Below are positions 667 through 4,800 of a DNA stretch of 6,567 nt, piece by piece. Numbering within the stretch: the stretch's first letter is position 1; every line of letters begins with the position of its first letter. Origin of the DNA: a virus (lineage: Duplodnaviria > Heunggongvirae > Uroviricota > Caudoviricetes). The stretch is from the IMG/VR virus record IMGVR_UViG_2645727604_000023. One strand, given 5' to 3'. A program made the position numbers and the translations under genes. The notes beneath the pieces are model-generated. The model saw only the letters and a program-made list of their open reading frames with translations. It was not told the DNA's origin and ran no database searches.

Positions 667-831
667 TTACATATTCTTGATGATCGCGTCACCAAACTCT
701 GAACATTTCAGCAGTTTAGCGCCTTCCATCAGACGTTCGAAGTCATAGGTTACGGTCTTCGCATTGATTGCGCCTTCCATACCTTTAACAATCAGGTCAG
801 CCGCTTCAGTCCAACCCATATGGCGCAGCAT
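667..831 (-). pseudogene. icdC: Displaced 3' fragment of isocitrate dehydrogenase (icdC-like), last 54 codons plus stop
   Basis: Minus-strand translation gives [54 protein letters not shown], recognisable as the Icd C-terminus. The reading frame has no upstream continuation: sequence past 831 is unrelated AT-rich DNA. Confidence 0.8.
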
Positions 832-1064: not shown

Positions 1065-1898
1065 TTATTTCTGTAATCGGTTTATATTAACGTAAAGCAT
1101 CTCGATTAGTTCTTTTGCATTTTTACTATAGTGTAATTCTCTATGACAATTCGGACAAAGGGCAACACAGTTATCTGTTGTATCAGCACCACCTGAAGAC
1201 AGAGGAATTACATGATGCACTTCCAAATATGGGTTTCCATCATTTAAATAAAACGGAGCATTTTTACCACAGTTTTCACATATACCTTTACTTTGCTGTA
1301 AAATCCAAGCTTTTACCATCGGGTCTCGAACATAAACTTTTTGTAGTCTTTCTACCTCAACTGGTTTCCTGGAGCCCTCGGGTTGACTCAACGTTTTCTT
1401 AATTAATTTACTAACCCTCATATTCAGAAGCGATTCATCATCTGTAGGCTGTGAAAGCTCTGATAGTTCTCCACGTATTATAGACGCCCAAAAACTGTCA
1501 CTATAAATTCCTGGAACATTTATCAATATTCGTTTCGTTCTATTGCCGGAAGGAATTTCCTTTCTCCCCGTACGACTAAAATAAGCCTGATAACCACACA
1601 TCTTCAAGCGTATATCGCGGGGGCTATTACCAATCAAAGTAAAATATTCACCAGGATGGATTTTTCTTTCATCCAAAGAATGCATATGTTTTCTGACTGA
1701 TGATGACGCCAGATATACTACGACTTGGGATACACCAGAATCAACCAACCGTTCAATGATATAATCAAGAGCGATATTGTAATCTTTGTTTCTGTCACCC
1801 GGCCCCCACGACTCAAGGATTAGACCATAAACACCATCCTCTTCACCTATCGAGCACTCAGCTTTCAGTTCAATTCCATTATTATCAAAAACATGCAT
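1065..1898 (-). CDS. mcrA: McrA, 5-methylcytosine-specific (Type IV) restriction endonuclease with C-terminal HNH nuclease
   Basis: 277-aa ORF with N-terminus MHVFDNNGIELKAECSIGEEDGVYGL. C-terminal Cys/His HNH motif CENCGKNAPFYLNDGNPYLEVHHVIPLSSGGADTTDNCVALCPNCH. Size and sequence match my recollection of E. coli McrA; position next to pin at the prophage end also fits. Confidence 0.9.
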   Translation of the reverse strand: MHVFDNNGIELKAECSIGEEDGVYGLILESWGPGDRNKDYNIALDYIIERLVDSGVSQVVVYLASSSVRKHMHSLDERKIHPGEYFTLIGNSPRDIRLKMCGYQAYFSRTGRKEIPSGNRTKRILINVPGIYSDSFWASIIRGELSELSQPTDDESLLNMRVSKLIKKTLSQPEGSRKPVEVERLQKVYVRDPMVKAWILQQSKGICENCGKNAPFYLNDGNPYLEVHHVIPLSSGGADTTDNCVALCPNCHRELHYSKNAKELIEMLYVNINRLQK

Positions 1899-2004: not shown

Positions 2005-2559
2005 TTATTTATCCTCTGCAGGAAACCTCTTATACAAAGTTGACACACCAACATCATAGATAATCGCCACCTTCTGGCGAGGAACTCCTGATGCAATTAA
2101 TCGTCCGGCCTGTGCCCATTGTTCTGGTGTAAGTTTGGGACGACGTCCACCAATTCGCCCCTGTGCGCGAGCAGCTTCCAGTCCAGCTTTTGTTCGTTCA
2201 ACAATCAGTTCACGCTCCATTTCAGCCAGGGCACCCATCACATGAAAGAAAAAGCGTCCCATTGGTGTGCTGGTATCAATTGAATCCGTCAGACTACGAA
2301 AGTTGATGCCTCGTTCGCGCAACTCCTCCACCAACACGACAAGATGCCGCATACTACGCCCCAGCCGATCCAGCTTCCAGACAACCAGAGTGTCACCTGC
2401 CGATAATGTCCTGAGCAGTTTTTTCAGTCCCGGCCTTTCGGACTTTGTGCCGCTTATCTTGTCTTCAAAAATCAGCTCGCATCCTGCACAGTTCAGCGCA
2501 TTACGTTGTAGATCTGTGTTCTGGTCATTTGTTGATACGCGTACATAGCCAATAAGCAT
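2005..2559 (-). CDS. pin: Pin-type serine DNA invertase (Hin/Gin/Cin/Pin family)
   Basis: 184 aa from the start MLIGYVRVSTNDQ, which has the catalytic-serine motif of serine recombinases, and a C-terminal HTH (GVPRQKVAIIYDVGVSTLYKRF). A strong SD (GGGGGAG) sits about 5 nt upstream of this ATG. The ORF track's longer 2005-2595 version starts at an upstream ATG with no SD. Confidence 0.9.
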   Translation of the reverse strand: MLIGYVRVSTNDQNTDLQRNALNCAGCELIFEDKISGTKSERPGLKKLLRTLSAGDTLVVWKLDRLGRSMRHLVVLVEELRERGINFRSLTDSIDTSTPMGRFFFHVMGALAEMERELIVERTKAGLEAARAQGRIGGRRPKLTPEQWAQAGRLIASGVPRQKVAIIYDVGVSTLYKRFPAEDK

Positions 2560-2585: not shown

Positions 2586-2975
2586 ATGATGCCATTTGCT
2601 CGTTATTTCTGCATTTTCATAAACGTTGGTTTGGGAGAATTATCTCTGGCTGGCACTGCATCGGGTGTCATTGGCCTGAATGGGTATGTAACGATCCCGT
2701 TAATTATTTCAGGTTCCCGGAGAACACTGATTATTCAGTGGGGGCAGGCGAGATTTGGTGGGTCTGGTGGTGAAGATGCCGGATATCTTAACGATTTTCC
2801 TTTTGCCTTTCCGTCAGCATGTTATGGAATGATAGTTAGTCATGTGGGGCATACACCTTCAGGCGCAGGAATCCTGTCGGCTTCTGCAATTACATCAAAT
2901 CAGTTCCGCGGTTTTTCAAGCATAGCGACTGCTGCAAACGCTGTATTAGGTCGTTATATCGCTATAGGGGTGTAA
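2586..2975 (+). CDS. Promoterless alternative tail-fibre C-terminal cassette (Sv'-like), silent in this orientation
   Basis: The ORF crosses the left inversion site, whose conserved core encodes GLGE (codons 15-18). From the crossover the frame continues for 111 codons to a TAA that is coupled to the next gene (TAATATG). It has no plausible independent start context, so the functional unit is probably the portion from about 2628 onward, fused to the constant fibre N-terminus after inversion. Confidence 0.6.
   Translation: MMPFARYFCIFINVGLGELSLAGTASGVIGLNGYVTIPLIISGSRRTLIIQWGQARFGGSGGEDAGYLNDFPFAFPSACYGMIVSHVGHTPSGAGILSASAITSNQFRGFSSIATAANAVLGRYIAIGV
2614..2639. repeat. Left inversion crossover site (hix/gix-like 26-bp site)
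   Basis: Minus strand reads TTCTCCCAAACCAA-CGTTT; its first 14 bp are identical to the right site at 4498-4511 in inverted orientation, and 18 of the first 19 bp match. It fits the invertase-site pattern TTnnnnAAACC-NN-GGTTTnnnnAA and lies immediately upstream of pin. Confidence 0.75.
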
Positions 2976-2976
2976 T

Positions 2977-3414
2977 ATGTTTTATAGTCCATCTTTAAAC
3001 ATTTTTGTGAATCCTGCACTTAAGGATGATTACATTAATGCAAATTCATGGCCAGATGATGCTCTGGCTGTCAGTGATGATGTTTATAATGAATTTGCAA
3101 TCAATACGCCTCCAGATGACAAAATTCGTGTTGCAGGAAAAAATGGATTACCCACATGGGCACTAATACCTCCACCATCACATGAAGAACTTATTCAACA
3201 GGCAGAATCAGAAAGGCAATTATTGCTTAATCAGGCCAACGAATACATGAACAGTAAGCAATGGCCCGGTAAAGCCGCTATTGGTCGTCTGAAAGGTGAT
3301 GAACTGGCGCAATATAATTTGTGGCTGGATTATCTGGACGCACTGGAGCTGATCGATACTTCCGGTGCGCCAGATATTGAATGGCCTACGCCTCCGGCAG
3401 TTCAGGCCAGATGA
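2977..3414 (+). CDS. Tail-fibre assembly protein (Tfa/U'-like), partner of the silent cassette
   Basis: 145-aa ORF with SD AGGGG 6 nt upstream. Its C-terminus LDYLDALELIDTSGAPDIEWP resembles the conserved C-terminal motif of caudoviral tail-fibre assembly chaperones and the C-terminus of the convergent gene at 3386-3979. Confidence 0.75.
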   Translation: MFYSPSLNIFVNPALKDDYINANSWPDDALAVSDDVYNEFAINTPPDDKIRVAGKNGLPTWALIPPPSHEELIQQAESERQLLLNQANEYMNSKQWPGKAAIGRLKGDELAQYNLWLDYLDALELIDTSGAPDIEWPTPPAVQAR

Positions 3415-3979
3415 CATCCGGCGCTGTGCTGGTATCTGTTGCCGTCACCGCGTCAATGTAATCCAGCACAGCGTTAAGTCGGGTGTTTTCTGGCTGCGTC
3501 AGCTTCCGCCCAGCCTGTAATTTCAGTTGAATCAGACTGATGGAAGCCATTGCAGCATCAATCAGCGACTGGCGCTGTGCTTCTGCCGCTTCTACTGCGG
3601 CGCTATGCTGTGCCTCGGTATCCGTCACCCATTTCTCACCATCCCATTTATCGTATGGCGTTAACGGTGAAAGCGTGACATAACCGTCTTTGATGGCACC
3701 GATATAATCCACTGTAACAGCTGCGCCATTTTCAGTTGAGTAAACGGTCTCATTGCGATGGTCTTCTTCATGGCTCCATCCCTTACCCGTAAATACTGCC
3801 ACTTTTCCCGGGATGTTTTCGCCCGGGTCAATACCAGTGGAACAGGCGGGTATACTTACGCCAGTATTAATATATTCATCAGACCAGCCGGTATATTCAT
3901 ACGTTACTGCATTATAATAAAAACAACGCATATCGCCCGGCACTGTAGCCAGCCAATTTTCATCAAAAACAGGTATCAT
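3386..3979 (-). CDS. Tail-fibre assembly protein (Tfa/U-like), expressed-orientation partner
   Basis: 197-aa ORF; its start overlaps the tail-fibre stop (TAATG); SD GAGGG upstream. C-terminus LDYIDAVTATDTSTAPDVIWPELPEA is the Tfa C-terminal motif. Its 3' end overlaps the convergent tfa' gene by 29 bp. Confidence 0.8.
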   Translation of the reverse strand: MIPVFDENWLATVPGDMRCFYYNAVTYEYTGWSDEYINTGVSIPACSTGIDPGENIPGKVAVFTGKGWSHEEDHRNETVYSTENGAAVTVDYIGAIKDGYVTLSPLTPYDKWDGEKWVTDTEAQHSAAVEAAEAQRQSLIDAAMASISLIQLKLQAGRKLTQPENTRLNAVLDYIDAVTATDTSTAPDVIWPELPEA

Positions 3980-4800
3980 TATTTAGCCCTCACCAGAAAG
4001 TTGAATGCAATATTTCGTGGACGGGTTTCTGTATCTACATTTCCACTAATTTCACCATAACGTTTAACACTACGAGAGCTAAGAGCTCGTAGTGAGGAAG
4101 GCACATTAAGACCGGGTTCGTCCGTTTTAACTATTCCCCCGTCACCGTATGTAGCCAGTATTCCTGGGTTTACTCCTTCCCGTGCACTTCCTGCGGCAAG
4201 CCCGTCCCCCGTCCACAATTCCATATTGTGTGCATGATCCATAATTGTGTGTGATTGCCCTGAAAGTAGGGTACGTCCGACATCAATCCCGCGCCCATCA
4301 TCCCAGATACGAATGAAATCACCCCGTGCGTCAGGTAATGCTAGCGCCGGAAACACTTTCGCCAGCACAGGGTAATCAGTGGCAGAGAATTTCGCGCCGT
4401 TGAACTTCAAAAACACCATACTGGACCAACTGTCGATTACAGTATTTGGCATTGCGGCGGACGGCCAGAAGAACGGAACGCCAATACCTGGAGCACCTTC
4501 TCCCAAACCAAGGTTTTCGAGAGCCGTTTTCACCGTGCCATCCGATTTGATATCGCCAAACGGATTCTTGCGGCTTAACAGCAGCGCACGAAGCGCGGTA
4601 AGCAGCTGGTCATGCCGCCCCTTCTCCAGGCTGGCACCGGATGCCTCCACCACGCTGCAAAGCTCCTCCTGCAACATATCAAAGTAGTCATCATCAAGAT
4701 CGGTGGCAGGCGTGCCGGTCTGGGGGTTACCACGGGTAAAACCGTTCTTACCCGCGCCGAACTTATCCTTCTGCGCGGTTTTCGTGTCTATACGATGCAT
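3979..4800 (-). CDS. Tail-fibre protein: about 100-aa constant N-terminus (Mu S-like) fused to the currently active variable C-terminus
   Basis: 273-aa ORF with GGAG SD. The N-terminal stretch [17 protein letters not shown] resembles the Mu S / P2-type fibre N-terminus. The right inversion site lies in-frame at codons 95-101 (ENLGLGE). The C-terminal part carries a tail-collar-like motif (NG...YP.L...[19 protein letters not shown]). Confidence 0.8.
4498..4523. repeat. Right inversion crossover site (hix/gix-like), inside the tail-fibre coding sequence
   Basis: TTCTCCCAAACC-AA-GGTTTTCGAGAG, an imperfect dyad around a central AA. It is the inverted partner of 2614-2639. Confidence 0.75.

Follow-up and report, generated by a model that had tools for sequence, protein, structure and literature searches.

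A 29-bp overlap of two convergent tail-fibre chaperone genes in the probable Pin-invertible segment of an e14-like prophage

Two genes for tail-fibre assembly chaperones, tfa' on the plus strand and tfa on the minus strand, converge in the stretch of viral DNA analysed here (the window; 6,567 nt of IMG/VR record IMGVR_UViG_2645727604_000023), and their coding ends run into each other. The locus raises the question of what such shared ends stand for. A sequence-only reading had suggested homologous exchange between the two chaperones and an antisense relation between their 3' ends; decay of a defective prophage and the fixed design of a tail-fibre switch were considered as well. Based on all analyses, the last answer was preferred with a probability of about 85%, namely that the region is the midpoint of a Pin-invertible P segment of an e14-like prophage and that the tfa overlap is a fixed, inherited architecture.

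The window covers one end of an e14-like prophage, adjoining a duplicated icd fragment. It contained a DUF1398 (ycgX-like) gene (1-405), the C-terminal fragment of icd (667-831, minus strand), mcrA (1065-1898, minus strand) and, next to the tail-fibre cassettes, the serine DNA invertase gene pinE (2005-2559, minus strand). The invertase was recognized by its Resolvase and HTH_7 domains in Pfam, and PGAP gave the name pinE at the matching position of an E. coli genome that was 99.8% identical to the window and carried the same gene annotation. The longest pin ORF started at 2595 (196 aa), 26 nt from the left crossover repeat, and the PGAP version started at 2559 (184 aa). On the plus strand, an ORF for a fibre tip (2586-2975; Pfam Gp53-like_C) was directly followed by tfa' (2977-3414). 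On the minus strand, the tail-fibre gene stf (3979-4800) was preceded by ymfQ and baseplate J on the same strand, as seen from the ORFs, Pfam and PGAP, and the chaperone gene tfa (3386-3979) lay immediately downstream of it. At the host side, only about 260 bp separated the DUF1398 gene from the icd fragment at 667-831, and in K-12 and strain PSS-08-2 iraM and ymgK were located between ycgX and the icd fragment. No ORF matching iraM or ymgK was present between these two genes in the ORF list of the window, and the host flank therefore appeared to be shorter in the source strain.

Two 19-nt inverted repeats with 95% complementarity were found at 2621-2639 and 4498-4516, and these are the putative Pin crossover sites. 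The left one bounds the segment, and the right one sits inside the stf ORF. When the DNA between the repeats was inverted in silico, the tip was swapped in frame: the constant N-terminus of Stf, encoded by the 5' part of the gene (4517-4800), was joined to the alternative tip encoded within the segment (2640-2975), resulting in a protein of 212 aa compared with 273 aa in the window orientation. Because this inversion gives an in-frame alternative Stf, the region appears to be a classic Pin-type host-range switch, with the minus-strand cassette predicted to be expressed in the window orientation and the gp53-like tip and tfa' predicted to be silent. It was also observed by blastn that the central block of K-12 is inverted relative to its flanks in comparison with the window; hence, both orientations occur in nature. 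The inversion of the P segment has been described (PMC12529663): in e14, inversion of this segment by PinQ produced a chimeric StfE2 and adsorption of T2 was blocked, and the overproduction of TfaE or TfaP gave no protection against phage T2 (PMC12529663). The cryptic e14 switch may have a role in host defence.

The two chaperones, of 145 aa (tfa') and 197 aa (tfa) according to the ORF list, were compared with the Caudo_TAP profile (PF02413; cut-off of 22.1 bits). The scores were 113.2 bits over profile positions 6-130 of 131 for tfa' and 97 bits over positions 1-131 for tfa, and both are accordingly complete Caudo_TAP tail-fibre assembly chaperones. Together with a BLASTP match between the two proteins (34% identity over 80 aa, E 5e-11), these scores agreed with the earlier description of convergent tail-fibre assembly genes with homologous C-termini. 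A PDB sequence search with both Tfa proteins returned no significant match.

According to the ORF list, tfa' ended at 3414 and tfa at 3386, and the two genes shared positions 3386-3414, that is, the 29 bp that had been proposed. The overlap persisted on re-annotation, as the PGAP annotation of the 99.8% identical genome has both CDS with an identical 29-bp overlap, and the same overlap was seen in the comparison with K-12. The C-terminal peptides quoted previously, ...LDYLDALELIDTSGAPDIEWPTPPAVQAR and ...LDYIDAVTATDTSTAPDVIWPELPEA, were also correct. Direct reading of the sequence together with the codon table placed a palindromic core at 3382-3409 (TGGCCTacgcctCCGGcagttcAGGCCA), which has the form TGGCCT-N6-CCGG-N6-AGGCCA. 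Both strands of this core encode W-P-x-x-P, with the central CCGG belonging to the final proline codon of either strand, and WPxxP is the only motif common to both proteins inside the overlap. The 'short-tail' minus-strand gene ends in WPELPEA*, in agreement with the pattern usual in the family (WPxxPE and one further residue). The 'long-tail' plus-strand gene ends in WPTPPAVQAR*; the last eight residues of its protein (TPPAVQAR*) result from reading the final codons of the minus-strand protein in antisense, and the AVQAR ending departs from the usual WPxxPE.

The wobble positions of one frame coincide with the second codon positions of the other and no site is synonymous in both frames; consequently, the 29 bp were almost invariant. 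Nucleotide diversity was 0.009 in the overlap versus 0.055 and 0.074 in the flanks, and even the second codon positions of the flanks were more diverse than the overlap. The 123 contexts compared were 98-100% identical to the window sequence in columns 3376-3415.

Further, the junction was surveyed in other elements, as the sequence-only reading had suggested comparing tfa pairs for conservation of the overlap. An overlap of exactly 29 bp was kept in 125 of 135 distinct convergent Caudo_TAP pairs, a figure biased toward close relatives of the window, as the loci came from one genome scan and two viral scans queried with the window's own proteins and the sequences were not independent. Nearly all of the 29-bp pairs combined a WPELPEA-type with a WPTPPAVQAR-type tail. 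The same overlap was found in ECONIH4 with a different long-tail allele as the partner, and it was annotated in the isolated phages vB_EcoM-606R2, pro483 (P2-like) and MET_P1_103_31 (a Salmonella peduovirus). The overlap is a conserved architecture, already annotated in K-12 e14 and in many phages. The paper on PinQ and e14 (PMC12529663) never mentions it, and a literature keyword search on the tfa overlap returned no match.

Several loci of the survey deviated from this layout. The convergent Caudo_TAP pair of Photorhabdus akhurstii (L027, 4585-4815) was 229 bp apart and showed a third junction layout, in which each gene is followed by a separate terminator-like hairpin of its own. In Dryocola (L013, 4484-4683), a 1-nt indel was present, both ORFs read through and the overlap extended to 130 bp. 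Decayed junctions were seen in the viral contig L118, where a W-to-stop change occurred in the long-tail gene (about 3594), and in another, L146, where the partner gene was frameshifted (about 3438-3469).

Beyond the junction itself, the DNA homology of the window to K-12, Shigella, Kluyvera and P2-like phages was mainly confined to three blocks in blastn. The first comprised pin and the left repeat and ended at 2639. The second was a conserved central block of about 400 bp (3259-3667), also apparent in the conservation profile, which contained the C-terminal domains of both tfa genes and was 89-93% identical between otherwise unrelated cassettes (the subjects were K-12, Shigella, Kluyvera, pro483 and a Salmonella peduovirus). 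The third began at about 4493 and comprised the right repeat with the constant part of stf in K-12 and Shigella. In the loci compared, 17 long-tail and 5 short-tail allele clusters occurred in 25 combinations, and the differences lay in the N-terminal halves. At least 80% of the window's cassette combination was present in only 4 of 5426 complete E. coli genomes.

Tfa has been described as modular (PMC9608196): the N-terminal domain binds the fibre and is variable, and the C-terminal domain is conserved. The block-wise homology fits this description. From the mosaic pattern, it seems that homologous recombination moves cassette halves from phage to phage, and the central block and the repeat and constant regions would provide the homology. 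We proposed that the central block serves as an anchor for this exchange of halves between phages and not for exchange between the two chaperones.

The RNA and DNA folds of the junction were also analysed. The region 3330-3480 folded beyond its shuffles (z of -4.8 and -5.6) and formed three local hairpins, namely H1 (3331-3376) within the coding end of tfa', a small central palindrome, and H3 (3420-3475) within the coding end of tfa, the last containing an 11-nt perfect inverted repeat (3422-3432/3463-3473). H1 was located 10 nt downstream of the minus-strand tfa stop and H3 6 nt downstream of the tfa' stop. The antisense z was about -5.7 for e14 long-tail ends, a group with two allele families that differ in stem sequence, and -2.4 for short-tail ends, versus -0.2 for 41 other Caudo_TAP gene ends encoding similar peptides. 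When compared with synonymous recodings, the native antisense fold was superior to 998 of 1000 for H1 and 999 of 1000 for H3, and native antisense folds exceeded 990-999 of 1000 recodings in three separate sequence families; no excess stability was found for Mu U and U' in this test. For the long-tail allele B, the antisense RNA fold was outstanding and the sense fold was not. In a scan of antisense folds along each gene, the interval beside the overlap was the only outlier, and H1 lay in the sole interval of tfa' that was outlying on both strands.

The stems of H1 and H3 were strong. No U-tract followed H1, and a GUUUUCU run, a weak U-tract, followed H3 only when the stem was taken in its extended, bulged form. 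A generic terminator scan was at background (2 found versus 2.9 expected), as was the scan for promoters, and the junction showed no canonical signal of either kind above chance. Among 77 variants, no clean compensatory covariation was found in H1 or H3: most changes broke pairs, the pair 3425-3470 was mismatched in 58 of the 77, and the only double change tracked the replacement of a whole allele. The Rfam search of the window gave no matches. No 3' ends were listed at the K-12 region in the E. coli Term-seq supplements of PMC7815308, the late genes being probably silent there. It was proposed, tentatively and at well below even odds, that H1 and H3 replace a lost terminator of the Mu/P1 type, so that the codon-encoded 3' end of each tfa gene, as read from the opposite strand, would serve as the terminator or 3'-stabilizing stem-loop of its partner. 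The pair of coding-embedded hairpins flanking the overlap is the only element of the locus that may be new.

The idea of exchange and antisense control, that is, of arms working as an exchange substrate between the chaperones and of a 3' overlap controlling one tfa gene, was weighed against these data and considered very improbable. It draws on two observations that hold, as the overlap is real and the inverted similarity of the arms is significant. The imperfect inverted repeat reported near 3400 was recovered with its best self-inverted register centred at 3395.5 (47 of 85 nt matching), and its score of 25.75 was above chance, since 300 shuffles gave 10.1 +/- 1.6 with a maximum of 15.5; the homologous stretches, however, flank the overlap and are not inside it. 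In inverted orientation, 50 of 90 nt matched in one register versus 11-29 of 90 in 24 others. The similarity of the arms is thus real but weak: they agreed at only about 55% of positions and had no exact run of more than 9 nt in common. RecA-dependent recombination needs roughly 20-30 bp. With at most 9 exact shared bases, homologous exchange from arm to arm is unlikely, and this part of the sequence-only reading was not upheld. By codon position, arm identity was 0.58, 0.62 and 0.54, which fits conserved paralogous domains in a codon-biased genome; the third position was not above the first and second, and recent gene conversion between the arms was rejected on this ground and on the lack of exact runs above 9 nt. 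A single long hairpin or cruciform joining the two arms was also rejected, as the arms remained unpaired with each other and the MFE and centroid folds of both RNA and DNA used local hairpins instead. We proposed that the inverted DNA repeat is a by-product of paralogous C-terminal Caudo_TAP domains encoded on opposite strands and not a structure-forming palindrome. The antisense claim was true geometrically, but its consequence is improbable. The plus-strand cassette had no promoter of its own (2 promoter-like sites versus 3.8 expected in the scan) and no 5' part of stf, the fusion to the constant stf part being supplied by Pin inversion in silico. For these reasons, co-transcription of the two tfa genes is not expected, an antisense transcript would be left without a sense target, and antisense control by the overlap is not expected.

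Two further explanations concern the junction as a whole. The overlap could be a chance relic left by the decay of a defective prophage, with one gene, probably the long-tail one, non-functional and the conservation due to recent descent. The K-12 e14 element is indeed cryptic and defective, the long tail deviates from the usual WPxxPE ending, and decayed versions of the junction exist (the frameshifts of L013 and L146 and the W-to-stop change of L118). However, the junction is intact in isolated phages with unrelated backbones (e14-like and P2-like Peduovirus), it is combined with 17 divergent long-tail alleles, its diversity falls below that of the second codon positions of the flanks, and both proteins match the full Pfam profile; decay was therefore judged very unlikely. 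A role of H1, the central palindrome and H3 as a DNA-level or protein-binding element, for example an inversion or recombination site, and not as an RNA 3' end, was regarded as highly unlikely. The structure signal is similar on both strands and lies near the middle of the invertible segment, but not exactly there: the segment centre, at about 3568, does not match the overlap at 3386-3414. Additionally, the recombinational enhancer of P1 Cin is annotated inside the invertase gene, and allele B stands out in the antisense RNA fold only, which points to RNA on one strand.

The preferred reading, a fixed joint at the midpoint of the invertible P segment, would work as follows. Two host-range cassettes, each composed of an Stf tip and a Tfa chaperone, face each other, and the expressed cassette would be the one joined to the constant 5' part of stf and the late operon, that is, the minus-strand cassette in the window. 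Pin inversion at 2621-2639 and 4498-4516 would swap the cassettes. The last codons of the two tfa genes interdigitate over the 29 bp, and the long-tail gene, having no 3' end of its own after WP, would read the antisense of its partner until a stop is reached. The variable halves lie between the conserved central block on one side and the conserved repeats with their constant flanks on the other, and could thereby be swapped between phages by homologous recombination.

The overlap is thus a standard annotated feature of a classic host-range switch, and the finding as first written adds little. The central block with its 29-bp dual-coding core would be the fixed joint at which natural tail-fibre cassettes recombine, and such a joint could be useful for designing chimeric fibre/chaperone modules and for retargeting phages or tailocins. 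Edits near either tfa stop will alter both proteins. If the hairpins are indeed transcript ends, a regulatory RNA structure would be kept by codon choice inside a convergent partner gene, and with embedded terminators either Pin orientation would bring a ready-made transcript end.

Among known systems, the nearest was e14 of K-12 (stfP-tfaP / tfaE-stfE', pinE), which has the gene order and the Pin repeats of the window and the same 29-bp overlap of tfaP and tfaE at 1208517-1208545, with the tails WPTPPAVQAR* and WPELPEA*. Its central block was 89% identical to that of the window, and the flanks and central block together showed 89-97% identity, whereas the variable halves at 2640-3258 and 3668-4492, which encode the Stf tips and the Tfa N-terminal domains, had no detectable DNA similarity to K-12 e14. 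The segment is in the opposite orientation in K-12, and the neighbouring baseplate genes are intact in the window, unlike those of K-12 e14. The P2-like Peduovirus phages pro483 and MET_P1_103_31 share with the window the 29-bp junction, roughly 160 nt of surrounding DNA and an invertase adjoining the cassette, but differ in phage backbone and fibre tips. Since the same junction occurs on this different backbone, the cassette is a mobile module.

The hairpins themselves resemble the bidirectional intrinsic terminators of convergent bacterial genes in that a stem-loop follows each stop codon. They differ in being two separate hairpins, each within the coding sequence of the partner and without a canonical U-tract.

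The G segment of Mu (S-U / U'-S', gin) and the C segment of P1 (cin) are likewise serine-invertase switches of a fibre tip and its chaperone, with convergent Caudo_TAP-type chaperone genes in the centre whose C-termini end in [WF]PxxP, as in the window. However, conservation of the overlap did not extend to Mu and P1: U and U' do not overlap and are separated by a spacer of 27-28 bp. This spacer carries a AAGGCCCG-loop-CGGGCCTT hairpin between A and T runs and has the form of a bidirectional terminator. One example of this spacer type is AAAAATTAAGGCCCGATAGCGGGCCTTCTCTC, a GC hairpin with A and T flanks. Junctions of the Mu type, with spacers of 26-30 bp, a GC hairpin and A/T runs, were found in Mu, P1, Mixta, Pantoea and Edwardsiella, and the hairpin spacer was present in all 43 distinct Mu-like contexts; no such spacer was present in the window according to the ORF list. 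A solitary gene with a long-tail C-domain of the NLWLDYLDAL type had the normal WPGKPEE* end followed by a terminator-like hairpin. On the basis of these comparisons, the junction of the window is most likely a compact derivative of a Mu/P1-type arrangement, one that would have lost the spacer and the original end of the long-tail gene. With less certainty, the embedded hairpins may be the 3'-end structure, a terminator or a stabilizer, that was formerly provided by the spacer terminator; the coding ends of U and U' in Mu and P1 have no excess structure, unlike the tfa ends of the window.
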